A stretch of DNA of 64,000 bases from Promethearchaeota archaeon. GTDB taxonomy: Archaea; Asgardarchaeota; Lokiarchaeia; Sigyniarchaeales; SOKP01. Location: assembly GCA_048937405.1 (NCBI GenBank), contig JBHLNF010000001.1, positions 656,785-720,784 of the forward strand. The letters are read 5' to 3'. The position numbers and the translations under genes were made by a program. The notes beneath the pieces are model-generated. The model made no database searches, had not been told where the DNA came from, and saw only the letters and a list, made by a program, of their open reading frames with translations. Below, piece after piece: positions 293-10,755 of this stretch. The stretch's first letter is position 1, and every line of letters starts with the position of its first letter.

Positions 293-3200
293 TTAAAATA
301 TAAAAGCACCTGAAATCTGTATAACAAATATTATTCCAAAAAATATGAGTAAGATAATTAAAAAAATAAGCGTATAAAATCGCCACTTAATTGATATATT
401 TTCCTTTTTTTCTTTAAAAATCATATAAGGTAATAAGATTGCCCCTACAATCCAAATTGAAATCCAAATAGTAAAAATATACCAAATTGGTGTGATAAAA
501 GCAAATAAAACTATAATAACACTACTCCAACTAATAATTAAACGGATCATTCTCCTTCTAAACTTTATATCTGGATCGTCAGATTTTTTAGATGGCATAA
601 ATGAATAAAGTAAGCCAAAAATAGGAAATATTAGAAGAGTTGCATGAATAGGATTTAAAAGACCAAATATTACATCTGAGAAAAGAATACCAAAAAATAT
701 TGAAGCAATTATATTAATAATTGTCCAAATAGCCCTGTAATGAATCTTAATAAAATAGCTTATTTTTAAAAGAACATTCTTAATTATTGTTTTTAGAAGT
801 CTGAAAATTTTTGATATTGTATCAACAATCCAACTGAAAATTTCTTTTAGTTGTTCTAATAAGAAAATAAAGGGATAAATTAGAAGCATTATAACAAAAA
901 TAATAATACTAAATATAGAGGATAAAGAAAGCTGGTAAATTATTGAACTTAATAAGAAAAATATTACTAACCAAAAAGTCAATGCTAAAATCGAATGTTT
1001 CTTAAATGGTTTCACTATTATTATCAGAAATATCATAAAAATCAAGAAAGTAATGTTTATATTCAACAGGTGATTATATCCACTGAAATACTCTAATAAT
1101 AAATATAAATCAACGGATAATAAAGCTCCTGAGGTTAAAAAGGCGCTTGATTTCAATATTTTTCGCAGTTTTTCTTCTAAAAAGCTATCAAATAGGGTTA
1201 TTAATAGTAAAATTAAAACAGCAATAAGTATTAAATTAAGATTCATGTTAAAATTGAAGCTAATGAAGTATAAAGGCCAAGTAATGAAATTAATATAAGA
1301 AACAATTATTAGATTAAGTTTAATTTGCTCTTTGTGTAAAACAATTGCATGCCAACTAGATATTAATCTCAAAAGATAAGTAAACTCAATGATAAAGACT
1401 ATTATAACGAGCGGTATAACAGTATAGAATATTTCAATAAAAAAGGTATTATAAAACCAAATTAAATAAAATAAGGAAAAAGCCATAATTAAACCCCAAG
1501 ATAATAACTCAAAATAAGTAACACTTCTTCCTAAAAATTTTAGAAGTTTTTTATCGATAATCATTAAGACGTGAATAATACAGCTAATTACTAATAAAAT
1601 TATTTGGAAATTTATTCTTTGTATAATTAATAATTGTAGTATAATAATACTCAATAAAAAATAGAAAAATGCTCCTAAAATGTGTTGGATAGAGCTTTTA
1701 TATCTTCTAAATGTATCTATCTTCTGAGGGGATAACATTTCTAATGATTTAAAAAGAGAGAAATTTGAATAGAATTGCATTATAAGAAATATCAAAAACT
1801 CTAAACTCAATAAGATAGAATATAGAGATATATATTGATTTAAGATAATAAGTAGCATTATTGAAATAACAATAAAGGAAATGGAGTGAACAAATCTTGC
1901 ATAAAATTTTATTATTTTTTTTATCGAATAAATGTCTAAAATCGTTAAAATGAATAATATTAATAAAGAAGAGAGGATACTCTCAAATAATCCCAAATAC
2001 TTGATTGATAGTCCATATGTAATTAAGCTTATTTCAAGATATAATGCTAAAAATAAATTTGAATGCATCTTTTCCAAAAAATTCGGATATTTTTGTTCAG
2101 GTAAAATTTTATTATAGATTTTTATGGTATTAAACGTTAAACATATTTGCAAAAATATAATTATATTAACTATAAGGAAATTCAAATAATTTAGGATATG
2201 AAAAATATAGGCTAAATTTATTCCTGATAATCCTTGAAATACGATAAAAAGAATAAATTCGACCCGATTTTTTAAAGTTTTCTCAAACTTAATTAAAAAG
2301 TAGCTTAAAAAATATAAGAATAGAAAAGCATTTTGAATTAATAACGAATATTCTAGAAATCCTCTTATTTCTTCAAAGAGTAGTAATAATCCTCCTGAAA
2401 TTAGAGAACTTAAGTAAAAAGAACTCCAAATAAATGAATTATAGATGAGAATCAAGCGAGTAGAAGATCTTATTGAATGGTATTTATCTAAGTGAGAGGA
2501 TAATTTAACAGAGATAAGATTTAGGAGAGATATTGTTAACATTAACAGAAATAGATTTAAATATAATAAAAACAAAAGTACTGCTAATGTATTACAGAAA
2601 ATTAACCATGACCATAGATTGAACCAATTCCTAGTTGATTTAAACATGAATTTAAAATAATAGTTATCTAATATGAAACCTTCTATGAACAAAATTCCAC
2701 TAAACAATATTAAAAATGAAAATATAATAAAACGAATTTCCCAATTAATAAAAAAAAGATAAAGTAATAGATTAAATCCTGAAGCTAAAGGAATTAGGAG
2801 GTATAAAATATAACTAATTTTATTGAAAAAGAGGGTATATTCTTTAAAATTCACGTTTAAATCCGATTTTTCGATGTATTTCATGCAAAATAAGAAAAGA
2901 ACTGACCATATTATGAGAAAATCACATAGTTGGTATATTATTAAAATTTGAGTAAATAATAGCTGTTTCATTAAATTTGGTAAAATTATTCCAATAAATA
3001 ATGAAATACAAATTGAGTTTAATAGAAAACATATAAAATTAAACCACCTTAACTGAATTTTATTTTTGTAAATTCTAAAGATACTATTTTCTATTTCTTG
3101 AGATTCTTGTTTTATTTCTTGCGTTTCCTGTTGGACTGACTTTTTGAAGATATTAATAATAATCTGAAAAACAATGAGATATAACATTGACCAAGTTAGC

Positions 3201-6200
3201 AACCAATAAGGTTGAATAACGTCTAAACTTAACATAGCTTCCAAAATTGGAGAATTTATAGGAATTGGGAAGCAAAACCAGAGGAAATAGCGATATTCTT
3301 TAATTAAAAAATAAAAAAATAAAATAGATACAGAAGAAAAAGTCGAAATTAATATCCCTGGTGACGCCTTGAAAATCAATGATACAAAAGAAGTAGCAGA
3401 TAATGAAGCTCCAATAATGATAATTAAATATTGAATTATGTTATTGATAGGTAGTCCCATTCTATATCGATTAAAAATGAAAAATGAGAAACCAATAACA
3501 GTTAACCAAAGAGAGGACGCTAATACAAAAAATCCAGTTATAAGATTGATCATATTGAATATTAACCAGGCTAAATTAAATATTAGTATCCATGAGAGGC
3601 TAAAATCTATAATTTTACTAACATATTTATTTGAAATCTTTATATATTTTGAGGAAAAAAGACTCAAACCTACAACAATAAAGCTGATGTTTATAGAAAA
3701 AATGAGATCTAAAATTAATAAATAAAGAATAGAAACGACTGTGAAAAAGATACCTAAAAGACTCACAATATATGCACATAATAAAATAAGTTCACGAGAT
3801 CTTATATTTGGAAAAAATGAATAGACAATTAACAAAAAGCCAATAACTAAAACATCAATTGAAATTGCAATTTCTAAATCAACACTAATAGATATTAAAT
3901 AAAAAAATAAAAAGAAACCATTAACAGCAGTTAACATAAGCCAAATTTTAGATACAATTTTCCAATATTTAACTCCTACGAACAATGGCATTAATAGGAT
4001 AACTGCAAATAAAAGAAAAGATAAATTTCTTAATAAGAGATTACTAATAAATAAATTTAGACTAATCCAATAGAGTAAGAATAGGCTTTCACCCCATATA
4101 ATAAATATAATTTGAAAAAAGTATTTCTTAATTTTTGTATACAGGACAGGTAAAAAAAATAAAGAACATATTATTATCGATATTATAAATGAACCTTTTA
4201 CTTGAAATACCCCAAATTGTAATGAATCAGTAAGTACATCAATTCCAGTAAAACTCTGATATATGATAAAGAAGTTTATAAAAGGTAGAATATTCCATAC
4301 ATACCATCCTGATTTCCAAATTGTCCATGAAATCCTCCAATGATATATTCCAATACAAAAATAAAAAAGAAAAACGCCAAAATCTATAGCGAATATTAAC
4401 GGAACTATAGATAATACGTGCATTGATAGAGAAGCAATGATTATAAAATATAAAAAAGTTGGAAAAGCTATAACTATAGAAGCAAGTATAGCAAAGAAAA
4501 ATTTATTTCTAAGCCTTTTTGGAGCATCATTATATAATAAAATTAATCCAAAATCTGATATACTTAGAGTGAGAGTGAAAGTTAAAATTGGATTGTAAGT
4601 ACCATAAATCTGATTATTAAAGAACCATGAGTATGATAAAAAGCTAATAAAGTCAAAGACAAATAAAATTACACAAGGTTTAATAAACCATTTATAACGT
4701 TCATCTTTTTGATGGTGAAAGTAAATTCCTGTAAAGAATAAGAATAAGAAAATTGAAATTGTTACGTTATAAATAGCTAAAATATTTGTAAAATTCATGA
4801 GAGAAATAAACGAGAGAATAGAAATTAACAAATATAATGAAAATTTTTCTTGGGTATTGTTTTTCTTAATATTTAGAGTAATAGAGAAAATTAAAACGGA
4901 AATTGTCGTTAAGAGATATAGATTGATGATTATACTTATGTTTGTTAAATTTAGCCCTATCACAACACCATAACTATCTAGAATTACTAGAATCGCAGCA
5001 AAAGTATAATAACTCAACAGAAAATATGATAAAAACCTAAAAATGGAGCTTATACTTCTCTTAGAAAGAATAAGCATATAAGATATTAATATAAGGAGAA
5101 TTGAAAGAGTACTATTAACATAAAGAAGGCTGAAAAATAAGATGATTGAAGTTAGATATAATCTGTAAATATTCAGTGAAGATGACTGTTCTATTACTTC
5201 ATTATATTTTATAGAAAAATAATATAAAATTAAAATCAGATTAACTGTGAGAGATATTATTTTCAAAAGTGAATTTTGATAGAACAATGGTATTGAATTT
5301 AATAAATTGAACAAAATTTCTATATAAATACCCAATAAAGAAAGGTTAAATACAATTTCAGTTATTTTTTTCAATAATAATTTATTTTTGGATGAAATTA
5401 ACCTCAGATTTTTTAGTATGTGAAGGCTTAATGGTGTAAGAATAGTAAATATTAATGATATAAGTAAAATTTTATTTACAATAAAAAATTGATAAGCAAA
5501 CACTTCAATTAGCATATAAATTAAAAAACATAATATTATCTTTATGATCATCCATGCAATTAATTCAGAAATAATTTTTACTTGAGTTAATTTCAGACTT
5601 ATTAAATTATCACTCACTATCAAAAGTAAAAGAAATAATGTGGTAAAAAAACCAATCAGAATAGTGGAATTGAATACTATTGAACTTAAAAAAAGATAAG
5701 ATAGAATATTTGTTGAAAGACTTAAAAATGTGAAAATGTATGATATTGAAATAATTATTCCATAAATTATGATATCTTGATACTTTTTCAAGGTTAAATA
5801 TTTTGGGTCATAGGAGGATGTTAATTTCAAGGTATAAATACTCAATAAAAAGAATAATAAGAAGCTACAACTTAACGTTAGAAAAACTACAGGAGTTAAT
5901 GTAAACCTATTAATAAAGGTCGAAGAAATATAATAAGAAAGAAGTAATGAAAATAGAAACCAGATAATTAGTTTAAGCAATTTGGAGTTTCTTATATATT
6001 TTTCTTTCAACTTAATTTTGATAGCGATAATCTCGAAAATATTAAGAAAAACAAATAGAATTAATAGTGTTAGAGTTATTATTGGAATAAAATTCGCTGC
6101 GAATCCAAATACTTCTATTCCAATGATAAATGGCAATGAAACAATTAAACATGATAATGCTGTAAAATTATAGATTGTTAATTGTCTTACTGATACTAGA

Positions 6201-9200
6201 TTGAAATATTCTTTTTTATAAGCATAATAGAAAATAAAAAACCAAGAGAAAAATAATGCAATAAAAGAAATAAGGATGTTATAAAAAATACCGCCTAACA
6301 ATAAAAATGGATAAAAAAATATTGTTGAAATCGAAATAAAAAATATGGTAATGAATTGTAATCTCCCTAAAATTAAAATAAATTTGCTGTTTAATTCTAA
6401 ATTTTTAGATAGATTACTGAGAATAAATAAAAAAGTAAAAAAAATGTAGAGGGAAAAGTTAATAATATTTATTGGTAAAAGCTTAGAATAAAATATCAAC
6501 CCTTTATTTATTAAATCTAAACTAATTATTAATGGAATTGAAGTAAGTAAACCTGTTAAAGCAATAGAAGTTAAAATTATTCCTAATTTAGCGAGTTTAA
6601 TATGAAACAACTGTTTCTTATAAGAGTAAAAAAGAGGTATGTAAAAGAAGCAGAACATAAAAATTAATGGTAATACAATACAATAAAAAGTCCCAGTTAA
6701 TAAAAAAAATGTATAATAGAAGACCGTCGTAATACCAATACTTAAAGTTAAAATTACATGTAATTTAAGAACCAGATTAACTCGATTTTCATCAGTCTTA
6801 ATTTTCTTCAATATGAAATAATAAATGTCAAGAAGAATAAATGCAATATACAGAGTAAAATTGATAACAGAAAATATTAAAAAAATTAAATCAAAATAAA
6901 ATCCTAAATTGAACAATTCCAAACCTATAATTGTGGGAATTAATGATATTGTAGCTGAAAATAGCAAACTGTTTACTTTTAATAATTTGGATGTAAAGTT
7001 TTTGAAAATCCCTTTCCTCCTCAAATATAGAATTGGAAAGTAAAAGGTTATGGTAAAGATCAGAAGAGGAATTATCAAAACATAAGTTGTATTAAAAGTT
7101 AGCAATAAAAAGAAATAAAAAGCTATAGGTGAACTATATAATAGAATAAATATGTTTATTCTAAAGATGAGATCTTCAGAAAAGAATTCTATTTTTGAAA
7201 ATAGATTGATTATTCCTCCAACAATTATTAATGAAAAATATAATGAATAGATTATATTTTCAACGAAGGATAAAGACTGAAAAATAATAAAAAAAATAGA
7301 GAAAAAGAAAGATAAAATCTCAGTACCAATTAAATATGAATTGATTTTATTGTTTCTCATAAATTTGGATTCATTTATTTTTTCTAAACTCATACCAAAT
7401 TTCAATATTATATAGTAGAAAATAGATGAAATTAAACAATCTAATATTAGAATGATGATATTTATATTAAGTAAGGAGATAATCAGTAAAGATATAAAAA
7501 AATTAACAAGAAATATCCAAAAAATAAAATAACTGAACATCAAGAAGTATTGTAATTTAAAGATATTTAGACTATAATTTAGAAAAAGAAAAATAGTGAA
7601 TACTATTGGAAATAAAATCATTGATATACAGATAGAATATAAAAAATTGACAAATTCAAATACCAGAAAATTCCTAAAATTAATGAAAATAAAAATAACA
7701 AATTCAATTAAAAAACTTATTATAACTGTATATATTCTGAAAGATTTAGGACTTTTAACGTAAAAATATCTAATCCCTAAAATGTATAGAGAAATTAGTA
7801 AAGTTACTAAAATGATAATGCAATGTAAGAGAATATTTGAAATTAGAATTATTAAGGGATCAGATGTAAAAGATGTATATTCGATAATAGCTATTGGAAA
7901 GAATGAGTATAATATTGGTATAAAACTTGCAATAGCCAGTAAATTTTGGTAAACAAGAATATCATCTTTATTAAAATATTCATATTTAACAAAAATTTGT
8001 AATACAAAATACAATGAAAGACAAAATATTAAGAAATTTAATAAAATTATCTCATGCATTAATGGTATTACCCCAAAAGCAACAGAAAACAAAATTGAAA
8101 TTGAATTTAACAACGCTATGTATCTGTTGTACTTTTTAGGACAGAGTTCTGATTTTTGTTCATAATAGACAAGAAAAAAAATAAATGGAAGTATAATTAA
8201 ATTTAAGAGAGGAACTTCAATTAAAAAAGAGAAAATAGTTATTAGTAAAATTAAAACAATAGATATATATGAATTATGTTTTTGATATCTGATATACTTT
8301 TGTATACCACTTTCTCTTGAATTTTCACCTTTTTTAGATATGTAGAATAGATTAAAAAGTTTCGAGTTATAATATACACTAACATAGAACCTAGATTTAA
8401 AAAAAAATAAGATAAAAATGAAAGTTAAAAAAGCATTACTTATTATTTCTAGGTTTGAGTACAATGTACCTCTGAGACTGAATATTAGAATATTAACAAA
8501 TGGCATTTGAATTAATAAGATAAAAAAAAGATTGACTATGAAAATTACAAATTGCTGTTTATAAGTAATCAGGTCCTTTAGAATTGGCTTATTCTCAACA
8601 ATCAGTTCTTTAATCTTATTAATTTGATTTTTAGTTGATGATAAAGTTAATATGTAGATAAGAATGTTTGTAATTAAACAAAAAAGCCAAGAAAATTCGG
8701 TAAATGTTGTAAAACTCAGAAATATAATATGAATGAAGTAATTGACGACAATGATAAAATTATCTGGTTGTTTAAGTGATGATTTAATATTTTTTGCATG
8801 TTTAAACTCCTTCTCCTCTAAATTAAAATAATCTAATGGTTGAAATTTATAATAATAATATACGATATTATAAAGAATTGTATAACTAACTAGAGGAAGT
8901 AAAGTAAAGTGAATATTTACAGGGGAAATTAAATAAAATATTGGTGTTATTAGCAAAGAAAAGATAGTAATCAAAAATAAACTATGAATTCTGGCGGGGG
9001 GGTTATTTTTTTTATTTAAAAAGAATGGTTTTCTTCTATATTTATCATATACTTTAAAAAAAAATAGGAGAGCATAAATAAAACTTAATACAGAAAATGA
9101 GAATGAAATGTAAAAATTTACTCCAGATTGAGTGAGGATCACAATTACTAAAAACGAAATAATCAACGGAGCAATAATTAAATAAAAACAAAACCACCAA

Positions 9201-9268
9201 GACTTTTGGAGAAATTCAGTGGCTTTTTTAATTTTTTCTTGTGAGTTATTACTATTTTCCGTTAACAT
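293..9268 (-). CDS. Giant polytopic membrane protein (2991 aa) with internal ~133-aa 4-TM repeats
   Basis: Uninterrupted 9 kb ORF of alternating hydrophobic helices and short Lys-rich loops along its whole length; no recognisable soluble domain. Confidence 0.85.
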   Translation of the reverse strand: MLTENSNNSQEKIKKATEFLQKSWWFCFYLIIAPLIISFLVIVILTQSGVNFYISFSFSVLSFIYALLFFFKVYDKYRRKPFFLNKKNNPPARIHSLFLITIFSLLITPIFYLISPVNIHFTLLPLVSYTILYNIVYYYYKFQPLDYFNLEEKEFKHAKNIKSSLKQPDNFIIVVNYFIHIIFLSFTTFTEFSWLFCLITNILIYILTLSSTKNQINKIKELIVENKPILKDLITYKQQFVIFIVNLFFILLIQMPFVNILIFSLRGTLYSNLEIISNAFLTFIFILFFFKSRFYVSVYYNSKLFNLFYISKKGENSRESGIQKYIRYQKHNSYISIVLILLITIFSFLIEVPLLNLIILPFIFFLVYYEQKSELCPKKYNRYIALLNSISILFSVAFGVIPLMHEIILLNFLIFCLSLYFVLQIFVKYEYFNKDDILVYQNLLAIASFIPILYSFFPIAIIEYTSFTSDPLIILISNILLHCIIILVTLLISLYILGIRYFYVKSPKSFRIYTVIISFLIEFVIFIFINFRNFLVFEFVNFLYSICISMILFPIVFTIFLFLNYSLNIFKLQYFLMFSYFIFWIFLVNFFISLLIISLLNINIIILILDCLISSIFYYIILKFGMSLEKINESKFMRNNKINSYLIGTEILSFFFSIFFIIFQSLSFVENIIYSLYFSLIIVGGIINLFSKIEFFSEDLIFRINIFILLYSSPIAFYFFLLLTFNTTYVLIIPLLIFTITFYFPILYLRRKGIFKNFTSKLLKVNSLLFSATISLIPTIIGLELFNLGFYFDLIFLIFSVINFTLYIAFILLDIYYFILKKIKTDENRVNLVLKLHVILTLSIGITTVFYYTFFLLTGTFYCIVLPLIFMFCFFYIPLFYSYKKQLFHIKLAKLGIILTSIALTGLLTSIPLIISLDLINKGLIFYSKLLPINIINFSLYIFFTFLFILSNLSKNLELNSKFILILGRLQFITIFFISISTIFFYPFLLLGGIFYNILISFIALFFSWFFIFYYAYKKEYFNLVSVRQLTIYNFTALSCLIVSLPFIIGIEVFGFAANFIPIITLTLLILFVFLNIFEIIAIKIKLKEKYIRNSKLLKLIIWFLFSLLLSYYISSTFINRFTLTPVVFLTLSCSFLLFFLLSIYTLKLTSSYDPKYLTLKKYQDIIIYGIIISISYIFTFLSLSTNILSYLFLSSIVFNSTILIGFFTTLFLLLLIVSDNLISLKLTQVKIISELIAWMIIKIILCFLIYMLIEVFAYQFFIVNKILLISLIFTILTPLSLHILKNLRLISSKNKLLLKKITEIVFNLSLLGIYIEILFNLLNSIPLFYQNSLLKIISLTVNLILILYYFSIKYNEVIEQSSSLNIYRLYLTSIILFFSLLYVNSTLSILLILISYMLILSKRSISSIFRFLSYFLLSYYTFAAILVILDSYGVVIGLNLTNISIIINLYLLTTISVLIFSITLNIKKNNTQEKFSLYLLISILSFISLMNFTNILAIYNVTISIFLFLFFTGIYFHHQKDERYKWFIKPCVILFVFDFISFLSYSWFFNNQIYGTYNPILTFTLTLSISDFGLILLYNDAPKRLRNKFFFAILASIVIAFPTFLYFIIIASLSMHVLSIVPLIFAIDFGVFLFYFCIGIYHWRISWTIWKSGWYVWNILPFINFFIIYQSFTGIDVLTDSLQFGVFQVKGSFIISIIICSLFFLPVLYTKIKKYFFQIIFIIWGESLFLLYWISLNLFISNLLLRNLSFLLFAVILLMPLFVGVKYWKIVSKIWLMLTAVNGFFLFFYLISISVDLEIAISIDVLVIGFLLIVYSFFPNIRSRELILLCAYIVSLLGIFFTVVSILYLLILDLIFSINISFIVVGLSLFSSKYIKISNKYVSKIIDFSLSWILIFNLAWLIFNMINLITGFFVLASSLWLTVIGFSFFIFNRYRMGLPINNIIQYLIIIIGASLSATSFVSLIFKASPGILISTFSSVSILFFYFLIKEYRYFLWFCFPIPINSPILEAMLSLDVIQPYWLLTWSMLYLIVFQIIINIFKKSVQQETQEIKQESQEIENSIFRIYKNKIQLRWFNFICFLLNSICISLFIGIILPNLMKQLLFTQILIIYQLCDFLIIWSVLFLFCMKYIEKSDLNVNFKEYTLFFNKISYILYLLIPLASGFNLLLYLFFINWEIRFIIFSFLILFSGILFIEGFILDNYYFKFMFKSTRNWFNLWSWLIFCNTLAVLLFLLYLNLFLLMLTISLLNLISVKLSSHLDKYHSIRSSTRLILIYNSFIWSSFYLSSLISGGLLLLFEEIRGFLEYSLLIQNAFLFLYFLSYFLIKFEKTLKNRVEFILFIVFQGLSGINLAYIFHILNYLNFLIVNIIIFLQICLTFNTIKIYNKILPEQKYPNFLEKMHSNLFLALYLEISLITYGLSIKYLGLFESILSSLLILFILTILDIYSIKKIIKFYARFVHSISFIVISIMLLIILNQYISLYSILLSLEFLIFLIMQFYSNFSLFKSLEMLSPQKIDTFRRYKSSIQHILGAFFYFLLSIIILQLLIIQRINFQIILLVISCIIHVLMIIDKKLLKFLGRSVTYFELLSWGLIMAFSLFYLIWFYNTFFIEIFYTVIPLVIIVFIIEFTYLLRLISSWHAIVLHKEQIKLNLIIVSYINFITWPLYFISFNFNMNLNLILIAVLILLLITLFDSFLEEKLRKILKSSAFLTSGALLSVDLYLLLEYFSGYNHLLNINITFLIFMIFLIIIVKPFKKHSILALTFWLVIFFLLSSIIYQLSLSSIFSIIIFVIMLLIYPFIFLLEQLKEIFSWIVDTISKIFRLLKTIIKNVLLKISYFIKIHYRAIWTIINIIASIFFGILFSDVIFGLLNPIHATLLIFPIFGLLYSFMPSKKSDDPDIKFRRRMIRLIISWSSVIIVLFAFITPIWYIFTIWISIWIVGAILLPYMIFKEKKENISIKWRFYTLIFLIILLIFFGIIFVIQISGAFIF

Positions 9269-9420
9269 CGCCCATTATAAATTGAGGTTTACTTTGAAAA
9301 TAATGAAATTTTATATTTATAAATATATCAGAGCATTGGTTATTAATGTAAAGGGGTAATTAACAAAATTCTAACATTAATTCTATTAAATAAATTATTG
9401 AAACGATGAAAAGCTAATAT

Positions 9421-10755
9421 TTATTTAAAATTTGGTAAAAAGCTTTTTTGTAGTTCAAACAACTCATTAAAAATAGATTCTGCTTTTTTAAAACTTCCTA
9501 CGTTAGGATCGATTGCTAATGATGCAATTGCAATCTCCTTAGATTCTTTTAGAACAGCCTCGACGCAAAGATCTTGTATTGAAGCTTCAATACGAAGTAA
9601 TGCTGCTATATTTTTTGGTAGATTAATAGAGTTAACTCCATGCACACCGTTTTTATTGACTACCGCAGAACATTCTAAGATAAGGTCTTGAGGTAAATTC
9701 TTCACTATATTATTATTTGGGATATTTACAGCAACCTCATAAGAATTCTCATCATTTATTATTGCTTCGATTATCGGGATTGCTCTTTCTATTGAAACTT
9801 CTTCGTATAATATTCCCTTCTTAGGATATTTACCTTTTTTAAGTCTTTTATGATAATTAAGAAACTTATTATAAAAAAATTGTCCTTCTTTATCAATAAA
9901 ATCAATCCAATCAATCATATCCTGTGTCTCAGTAAATTCCTCACCAAATTGTAAGTATTCTCCTATATGGTTATCCCCTACGTATGGAAAATAACCAAAT
10001 CTCTTAAAAATTTCAAATGTTAAAGTTGAAAATTCAAATCGATCATCATGTTCTTTAAAATAGTCCATAGCAATTGAATTAAAAGATGGTAATAAATCTT
10101 TTCCAGTAGATAAATCTTCGATTCCCATTAAAAATGCAAAATGATTTAATCCAGCAACATTCATTTTTAACTCATCTATCGGTTTTTTAAATATCCTTGG
10201 TAAATGTTTTACCATAAATGAAATTTGATGACATAGTCCAATGAATTTTAGATTTTTTACACTCCTCTTAATTGCTAAACATACTCTTGACATTGGATTT
10301 GAGAAGTTAATGAAAAAAGCATTTGGACATAGTTCCTCCACATCTTTCACAATCTCAATAATAGGGGGAATTATTCTCCAAGCATGAAAAGTACCACCTG
10401 GTCCACCACATTCTCCTAAAATCTGCTTAGAACCATAATTTCTAGGTATTTCATAATCTTGGCGCCATAATTTCATTCTATCTCCTACTTCTATTGAATT
10501 AATAATGAAATCTGCCCCTCTTAGTGCTTTCTTCCTATCAGTCGTCTGTTCAAGAATGAATTTGTTTTCTCGCCTCTCATTTTCAACCATTAAGAGATCA
10601 TATACAATTTCCAACTTTTTTTTATTTATATCATGAAGAACTATTATTGAATCTTCCAAAACCTTACTTAAATAGATATCATTAAACATAGGTAAACCAA
10701 AAGAGGTCGAACCTGCTCCGATTAAAACAATTTTCCTATTCATTTTATTTTCCAA
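9421..10755 (-). CDS. Glycoside hydrolase family 4 (NAD+/Mn2+-dependent alpha-galactosidase/alpha-glucosidase)
   Basis: KIVLIGAGS Rossmann motif, GECGGPGG, NFSNP, GLCH and GLNH GH4 motifs. Confidence 0.9.
   Translation of the reverse strand: MENKMNRKIVLIGAGSTSFGLPMFNDIYLSKVLEDSIIVLHDINKKKLEIVYDLLMVENERRENKFILEQTTDRKKALRGADFIINSIEVGDRMKLWRQDYEIPRNYGSKQILGECGGPGGTFHAWRIIPPIIEIVKDVEELCPNAFFINFSNPMSRVCLAIKRSVKNLKFIGLCHQISFMVKHLPRIFKKPIDELKMNVAGLNHFAFLMGIEDLSTGKDLLPSFNSIAMDYFKEHDDRFEFSTLTFEIFKRFGYFPYVGDNHIGEYLQFGEEFTETQDMIDWIDFIDKEGQFFYNKFLNYHKRLKKGKYPKKGILYEEVSIERAIPIIEAIINDENSYEVAVNIPNNNIVKNLPQDLILECSAVVNKNGVHGVNSINLPKNIAALLRIEASIQDLCVEAVLKESKEIAIASLAIDPNVGSFKKAESIFNELFELQKSFLPNFK

Follow-up and report, generated by a model that had tools for sequence, protein, structure and literature searches.

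The giant gene

We analysed a stretch of 64,000 nucleotides (nt), referred to below as the window, from the genome of a Promethearchaeota archaeon (Lokiarchaeia; Sigyniarchaeales; SOKP01; assembly GCA_048937405.1, contig JBHLNF010000001.1, positions 656,785–720,784 of the forward strand), and describe here a gene for a giant membrane protein located at window positions 293..9268 on the minus strand, the strand of all other features for which window coordinates are given. The gene is the sole long frame of this interval, an open reading frame (ORF) of 2,991 codons plus stop with an ATG start, and its product, hereafter the giant protein, has a mass of 353 kDa, an isoelectric point of 9.4 and a grand average of hydropathy of +1.12, with about 91 predicted membrane spans. 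Isoleucine (17.7%), leucine (17.3%) and phenylalanine (12.5%) together account for 47% of its residues, which explains the low guanine-plus-cytosine (GC) content of the gene, 21–25% as against 27–30% in the flanking genes. A single copy was found in the 4.47-Mb, 29-contig genome, and the DNA of the gene is also present in sediment metagenomes from two studies. The start codon is preceded by an AT-rich spacer of 152 nt (9269..9420) with a TATA-like TTTATAAATA approximately 50 nt upstream of the ATG, judged by eye, so that the gene is probably driven by a putative promoter of its own.

Membrane spans and topology

Two segments of the giant protein, amino acids (aa) 850–2045 and 2060–2991, were modelled as single chains with AlphaFold2 from 28-row alignments (mean predicted local distance difference test scores of 77.6 and 80.8, and predicted template-modelling scores (pTM) of 0.49 and 0.47, respectively), and both were entirely helical. 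With helices kinked at a proline joined into one, aa 862–2990 comprise 68 helices with a mean length of 25 aa, which hold 81% of the residues. The loops between them average 6.6 aa on the side rich in lysine and arginine (K/R) and 5.5 aa on the opposite, outer side, where the longest loop of this part measures 19 aa, in agreement with an earlier note on this DNA, according to which the protein has essentially no soluble domain. Hydropathy peak-picking along the chain yielded 76–87 segments, depending on the threshold; since globally shuffled chains of equal composition gave 52–72 segments, the hydropathy count alone is weak evidence. The 23 hydropathy picks in aa 1–850 and the 68 AlphaFold2 helices add up to about 91 spans, with an uncertainty of a few. 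The roughly 70–80 transmembrane (TM) helices estimated by eye in the earlier note were accordingly too low a figure, and the count did not turn out to be far smaller than that estimate.

The positive-inside test, in which we used the family-mean number of lysines plus arginines per loop, provides a check not dependent on hydropathy. From aa ~340 to the C-terminus this number alternates strictly across about 80 successive loops, with 1.1–8.1 on one side versus 0–1.0 on the other (Mann–Whitney p 3.6e-12). The lag-1 autocorrelation of loop K/R is −0.50, as against a mean of −0.01 and a minimum of −0.31 in shuffles (n = 200), and none of 10,000 loop permutations reached the observed value. The K/R of the giant protein itself are divided between the two sides as 123 and 32, and most of the 32 on the poor side fall within the poorly segmented first 330 residues. 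An apparent slip of the register near aa 1990 vanishes if KEYRY is taken as a short inner loop and aa 1995–2013 as a proline-rich span. This charge pattern predicts a cytoplasmic N-terminus, on the K/R-rich side, and a C-terminus on the opposite side. We consider it very probable that the giant protein is a modular chain of about 91 spans arranged as consecutive helical hairpins, with some four-fifths of its residues in the bilayer and loops averaging 5–7 residues.

Internal repeats

The most evident modules form the N-side repeat array (5843..7231; aa 680–1142), in which half a unit is followed by three tandem units of 133–134 aa (aa 742–874, 875–1008 and 1009–1142; nt 5843–7045). These three units and their S..P.II.[LI][ED] motif had been recognised by eye in the earlier note and were located at the period given there, with significance in two kinds of comparison: piecewise, composition-corrected BLAST detected a 133–134-aa period (best E 1.6e-14) between aa ~646 and 1140, and block-versus-block comparison of hidden Markov models (HMM–HMM) on the family alignment matched adjacent units with a probability of 99.8 and E 5e-29. 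Of the motifs quoted in that note, those at the unit starts were located at aa 742, 875 and 1009; the S.(I/L)P.II.(L/I)(E/D) motif follows at aa 775, 910 and 1044. Each 134-aa unit was modelled by AlphaFold2 as four helices, the second of which is kinked at the invariant proline of the IP.II.LE motif. A profile of the unit detected two, three or four copies per homologue and had no match in one diverged subfamily.

A second and weaker series, of ~124- and 247-aa repeats, with offsets of ~120, 245–250, 372–382 and 493 aa (probability up to 97), extends over aa ~2070–2760 and corresponds to the C-side arm (851..3061; aa 2070–2806), whose 24 helices are organised in six four-helix blocks of 108–136 aa. 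Furthermore, aa 1051–1620 align with aa 2169–2733 at a constant offset of ~1,110 aa (probability 92–94, scores 46–50), which indicates that the N-side and C-side arms are related. Among 630 real block pairs, 29 scored above the maximum (28.4) of a reversed-sequence null of 420 pairs. Significant signal was limited to aa ~680–1620 and ~2070–2760, and the HMM–HMM block comparison gave none in the conserved middle (aa ~1620–2040) or in the N-terminal module; the view that the whole protein is built from 4-TM repeats hence applies to those parts in which four-helix units are duplicated, and lacks support in the middle and the N-terminal module. Whole-sequence self-BLAST and hhalign in self-mode returned no repeats, and because an HMM from the three clear units detected no further units above shuffled controls, repeat claims outside aa 680–1142 rest on profile–profile scores only. 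When we looked for a four-helix relative of the unit that stands alone (72–238 aa), only three fragments were returned, on contigs of <1.3 kb.

Conserved middle and flanking regions

The best conserved part of the giant protein is its middle, the hub (3149..4831; aa 1480–2040). In an alignment of 88 homologous sequences, 225 positions are conserved at ≥85% and aa 1500–2000 form the best conserved stretch, whereas aa 800–1000 are present in just a third of the sequences. The hub is also the only part held in common, at 29–35% identity, with the 3,100–4,900-aa relatives in cultured Lokiarchaeia. An alignment of 14 sequences from four families shows 26 invariant columns within it, including W/G/W/P/N, GS and FFPN motifs; among the invariant residues are Y1642, W1651, G1654, W1658, P1662, N1665, G1692-S1693, P1707, W1725, N1738, P1761, W1769, W1776 and F1819-P1820. 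A helix rich in tryptophan, glycine, proline and asparagine (aa 1648–1672) leads into the only sizeable outer loop (4196..4252; aa 1673–1691), the longest on the K/R-poor side, with the conserved pattern FTGID..T..L..FG, a nearly invariant D1677 and a short beta hairpin modelled at low confidence. Conserved loops on the cytoplasmic side are FFPNIRS (aa 1818–1824) and, in the C-side arm, KFLGR (aa 2577–2581). Throughout the protein, conservation falls mostly on W, F, Y, P, G, N and S and not on charge clusters, and only a small number of conserved polar residues sit deep in helices (K1243, N1665, Q2345, E2412, Q2498/N2502, H2566 and D2720).

On its C-terminal side the hub is joined to the C-side arm by a charged and poorly conserved cytoplasmic linker (3062..3142; aa 2043–2069). 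The arm is followed by an amphipathic helix on the cytoplasmic side (740..850; aa 2807–2843), which is continuous with the preceding span, aa 2784–2842 being modelled as a single 59-residue helix. Within it, aa 2806–2835 have the top hydrophobic moment of the protein (0.75 versus a mean of 0.20) and lie on the K/R-rich side; E2805 and K2808 are conserved. Five helices follow as the C-terminal bundle, which with the stop codon occupies 293..739 (aa 2844–2991) and carries a conserved SIKWRFY (aa 2959–2965), so that the amphipathic stretch described in the earlier note does precede a final TM bundle.

On the N-terminal side, the remainder of the N-side arm between the repeat array and the hub (4832..5842; aa 1143–1479) has ~12 spans, and a conserved membrane region before the array (7232..8281; aa 330–679) has another ~12, without significant repeat signal. 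The first part of the chain is the N-terminal module (8303..9268; aa 1–322), of which aa 1–300 are present in 59% of the 88 aligned homologues. Genus g12, a member of the same family, encodes the first ~312 residues in a separate ORF of 313–314 aa (L021:13836-14780 and L023:5887-6828), which overlaps the start of the main gene of 2,540–2,718 aa by a few bases and whose product is 46% identical to aa 1–322; the N-terminal module is therefore detachable. In a diverged subfamily (P0095, P0096) a sub-threshold zinc-ribbon motif (20–21 bits; aa 168–190) was seen in a loop of this module, and the giant gene of genus g2 overlaps at its 3′ end with an ORF for a zinc ribbon of 271 aa (L020:4699-5514).

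Homologues and distribution

Among 5.8 billion proteins, a word-seeded HMMER search returned 101 homologues of 1,660–3,750 aa, all with E ≤ 1e-145, with a best identity of 75% and coverage of up to 100%. All are annotated as hypothetical, none has a Pfam domain, and where the source is named it is an Asgard metagenome-assembled genome. Full-length relatives thus exist, the close ones aligning end to end, which contradicts the assembly artefact considered in the earlier note. Proteins of the family range from 2,500 to 4,900 aa. A profile of the conserved middle, searched exhaustively against 1.84 billion cluster representatives, recovered only 56 proteins, 53 of them at E ≤ 1e-30, without a twilight tail, and as far as sequence comparison reaches the family is isolated in sequence space.

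The distribution of the gene was surveyed in 399 genomes of the phylum by six-frame searches, with the protein middle first and then with a 14-sequence profile of the middle. Within the window's family, 100 of 133 genomes contained the giant gene; the remaining three families of the order had it in 1/1, 12/14 and 2/4 genomes and one other family of the class in 1/3, and the six-frame profile search gave no credible match in the ~240 genomes of other classes. Some close homologues have been submitted as Hodarchaeota or Thorarchaeota; the genome search does not support a presence outside Lokiarchaeia. Across the Asgard genomes surveyed the gene is therefore found in Lokiarchaeia only, and on these sequence matches the family is confined to that class. 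One closed genome of the same genus (3.3 Mb) matches over the second half of the hub only, in a frame of 1,344 aa (G188:C1:2325895-2326962), and the giant gene may be truncated or broken there.

Two cultured species, on the distant branch of the family, carry homologues, all of them annotated as hypothetical. Promethearchaeum syntrophicum MK-D1 encodes one of 3,940 aa (DSAG12_00898; QEE15075.1, UniProt A0A5B9D7T7). Candidatus Lokiarchaeum ossiferum encodes a 4,905-aa hypothetical protein and WKT22_03128 (3,144 aa), and its sequences (G138; L025, L026) contain the two paralogues at 4,905–4,908 and 3,144–3,146 aa, while nearly all other genomes are single-copy. These proteins share with the giant protein the all-membrane composition and the lack of a Pfam domain, and align with it at 29–35% identity over aa ~1500–1920; the end of the 4,905-aa protein also aligns with aa 2757–2975. 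They differ in being 150–1,900 residues longer, in being too diverged elsewhere for BLAST alignment, and in their neighbour genes. We found no description of the family in the literature on Asgard giant membrane proteins, on Piezo together with Asgard, or under the MK-D1 accessions.

We conclude that the giant gene is genuine and conserved in Loki-type Asgard archaea. Its very low GC content (21–25%) and a product composed mostly of I, L and F might point to an assembly chimera or to a chance open frame in AT-rich, low-complexity DNA, but the probability of such a non-functional frame is negligible, because stop codons are AT-rich and an open frame of 9 kb at 23% GC is far from chance, more than 100 collinear homologues conserve 225 positions at ≥85%, closed genomes carry the gene as do 118 of the 399 genomes of the phylum set, and the positive-inside pattern is conserved.

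Genomic neighbourhood

Directly upstream of the giant gene is a gene for a family 4 glycoside hydrolase (GH4; 9421..10755), followed further upstream by an aminotransferase and, in relatives, also by a major facilitator superfamily transporter. Directly downstream, past the low end of the window, lies a Liv-type ATP-binding cassette importer operon (L014, G000:C7:645000-657100) with a Peripla_BP_6 binding protein, two BPD_transp_2 permeases and two ATPase-sized ORFs, which is syntenic across the genus. Two genera of the window's family retain GH4 next to the giant gene. We considered GH4 as a functional partner and rejected it, as the adjacency is limited to one family and absent around the homologues of the cultured species, where the neighbours are a SPFH/flotillin-like gene, histidinol dehydrogenase with GNAT, a PhoU-domain gene and an acyltransferase. 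The SPFH/Band 7 flotillin-like gene lies directly upstream of DSAG12_00898 in P. syntrophicum MK-D1 (L027:2207-3442), a single case among the genomes examined. We draw no functional link from the genomic context of the giant gene.

Comparison with known proteins

The giant protein matched no Pfam family at E ≤ 1, and Pfam, NCBIfam and PADLOC scans of it and its distant homologues gave only two chance NCBIfam rows of 13 bits, and neither the giant protein nor the hub profile had a match among PDB sequences at E ≤ 10. The AlphaFold2 segments were all-helical and their fold matches were at the level of noise: no PDB row reached E ≤ 0.001 in Foldseek (best E 0.03, soluble TPR/HEAT solenoids with template-modelling scores around 0.1), and in the wide VIA-align search the best rows, with Z 10.9 (root-mean-square deviation 8.4) and 9.4, were generic three- and four-helix bundles within the noise range for helical models. 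The weak structural neighbours also included a designed flat helix-turn-helix repeat. In none of these six resources did the giant protein match a characterised family over its length.

Piezo1 and Piezo2 have 38 spans per chain, with nine four-helix units per blade. The earlier note compared the giant protein to Piezo as an architectural analogy only, and our results agree with that restriction: no Piezo family of Pfam was matched at E ≤ 1, no solved Piezo chain appeared in the PDB sequence search, and none occurred among the Foldseek rows or the top 50 VIA-align rows, in which models of 932–1,196 residues could miss a match to a single unit. Both proteins are very large polytopic chains consisting in part of tandem four-helix units, with a conserved non-repeat part joined to repeat arms; in the giant protein these are the three 134-aa four-helix units and the six further four-helix blocks, and the likeness is one of build, which gives no evidence of descent. 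Unlike Piezo, the giant protein has ~2.4 times more spans and no cap, beam or other soluble domain, its longest outer loop being 19 aa; its conserved part lies in the middle between two arms, whereas that of Piezo is at the C-terminus, and its family is archaeal only.

A second comparison is with Arc3A of Pseudomonas aeruginosa (DUF2339, PF10101; PA5114), which has 35 predicted spans, no catalytic-looking residues and a span number that varies between species, and which prevents the accumulation of lysophospholipids under phospholipase attack (PMC8926400). Like the giant protein, it is prokaryotic, consists nearly entirely of membrane helices without catalytic-looking residues and is variable in its number of spans; in contrast to it, Arc3A is bacterial, about a third the size, paired with Arc3B and has a shown role against a phospholipase toxin. 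PF10101 matched neither the giant protein (E ≤ 1) nor the six-frame translation of the genome (E ≤ 0.01), while control genomes were matched. Larger numbers of predicted membrane helices have been reported for giants of Omnitrophota, with up to 147 in one protein of 147,155 aa (bioRxiv 10.64898/2026.06.07.730766; 10.1101/2023.11.21.568195). These are likewise prokaryotic and have very many predicted membrane helices, but they carry ~1 helix per 1,000 residues and consist mostly of extramembrane domain arrays, as opposed to 1 span per 33 residues in the giant protein. Neither of the two papers describes the Asgard giant family, and one merely mentions Asgard proteins of >10,000 aa. The distinction of the giant protein is its helix density with almost nothing outside the membrane, and not simply a record number of helices.

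Possible functions

We tentatively favour a reading in which the giant protein acts as a structural element within the membrane, a scaffold of variable length, and regard this as possible rather than probable. Neighbouring hairpins would line up into an extended ribbon, longer or shorter according to how many four-helix blocks the chain contains, with the conserved middle and the C-terminal end as fixed points of contact or assembly. Rather than catalysing or pumping, such a ribbon could stiffen, bend or fence off the membrane. We prefer this reading because the length of the protein changes by whole helix blocks, its exposed surface is minimal and its conserved residues are mainly aromatic, proline, glycine or small polar ones. 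The earlier note inferred a membrane-shaping scaffold or a mechanosensor; of these, a scaffold would fit the variable number of units and the absence of catalytic-looking features. The block-wise variation of length suggests a ruler or ribbon better than it does an enzyme or a pore of fixed geometry, and the weak solenoid and designed-repeat neighbours of the models would suit a row of hairpins.

Several points weigh against a scaffold. The pTM of 0.47–0.49 leaves the long-range arrangement of the modelled helices not established, and the ribbon itself rests on weak structural matches and short loops. Conserved polar residues deep in helices and proline-kinked helices would suit a channel or a lipid pathway as well. 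Scaffolds normally need many copies per cell, and there was no RNA run among the listed datasets that contain the DNA of the giant gene. Finally, several genomes of the same family that are >95% complete had no match, and one genus has the gene in just 1 of 10 genomes; the gene, common overall, is therefore dispensable in those near-complete genomes that lack it.

The leading alternative, though a doubtful one, is a channel, transporter or mechanosensor, in which the hub, alone or as an oligomer, would provide the conduction or translocation path and the arms would act as tension-gathering or lipid-contacting blades in the manner of Piezo. The layout of a hub with arms of four-helix units recalls Piezo, and the hub has the invariant N1665 and the Trp/Gly/Pro-rich helix (W1651, G1654, W1658, P1662) ahead of the only sizeable outer loop; in the protein as a whole, a few conserved polar residues sit deep in helices. 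Buried charges are, however, sparse, with ~10 conserved polar positions in 68 helices; the length of the arms varies freely between species, a cap or other extramembrane gate domain is absent, and in the databases searched neither sequence nor fold matched Piezo, OSCA/TMEM63, MscS/MscL or any transporter.

An unlikely alternative is a lipid-handling or membrane-protecting function by analogy with Arc3A, in which the dense array of helices might bind or buffer damaging amphiphiles or particular lipids. Arc3A is the only characterised prokaryotic protein of such a style and has the above traits in common with the giant protein, but the lack of a PF10101 match in protein and genome reduces the likeness to an analogy. 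Archaeal ether lipids, moreover, are not known to be substrates of ester-cleaving phospholipases. Among the conserved neighbours there was no Arc3B-like partner (no PF13163 search was made) and no lipid-metabolism gene.

It is distinctly improbable that the giant protein is a docking platform, the exposed conserved pieces of which would anchor the surface layer, a syntrophic cell–cell contact or a cytoskeletal element. Such pieces could be the outer loop aa 1673–1691 with D1677, the cytoplasmic loops FFPNIRS and KFLGR with the cytoplasmic amphipathic helix, and, in one subfamily, the sub-threshold zinc ribbon inserted into the N-terminal module; the flotillin-like gene directly upstream of the P. 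syntrophicum homologue would also be in keeping with docking. The exposed surface is nevertheless tiny for a protein of 353 kDa, none of the neighbourhoods examined contains a partner gene conserved across the family, and the flotillin adjacency is one case.

Significance

With ~91 spans, as compared with 38 in Piezo and 35 in Arc3A among the well-studied giants, the giant protein represents an extreme build of a membrane protein and raises the questions of how such a chain gets inserted, folded and used. Since P. syntrophicum and L. ossiferum, both in culture, carry homologues, proteomics, tomography and purification are feasible. Lokiarchaeia are close archaeal relatives of eukaryotes, and their cells form long membrane protrusions; to our knowledge, no membrane-embedded shaping factor is known for these cells. 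Even as a channel or a lipid handler the giant protein would represent a new fold family, and if the scaffold reading held, it would embody a new principle of membrane organisation. In its boldest form, which we consider a long shot, the scaffold reading would make the family a new class of intramembrane skeleton, an in-plane ribbon of ~45 hairpins, its length tuned by the gain or loss of four-helix blocks, with which Lokiarchaeia would shape, stiffen or partition their membrane, for example in their long protrusions. Were that so, the closest archaeal relatives of eukaryotes would possess a membrane-remodelling device without a counterpart in bacteria or eukaryotes.

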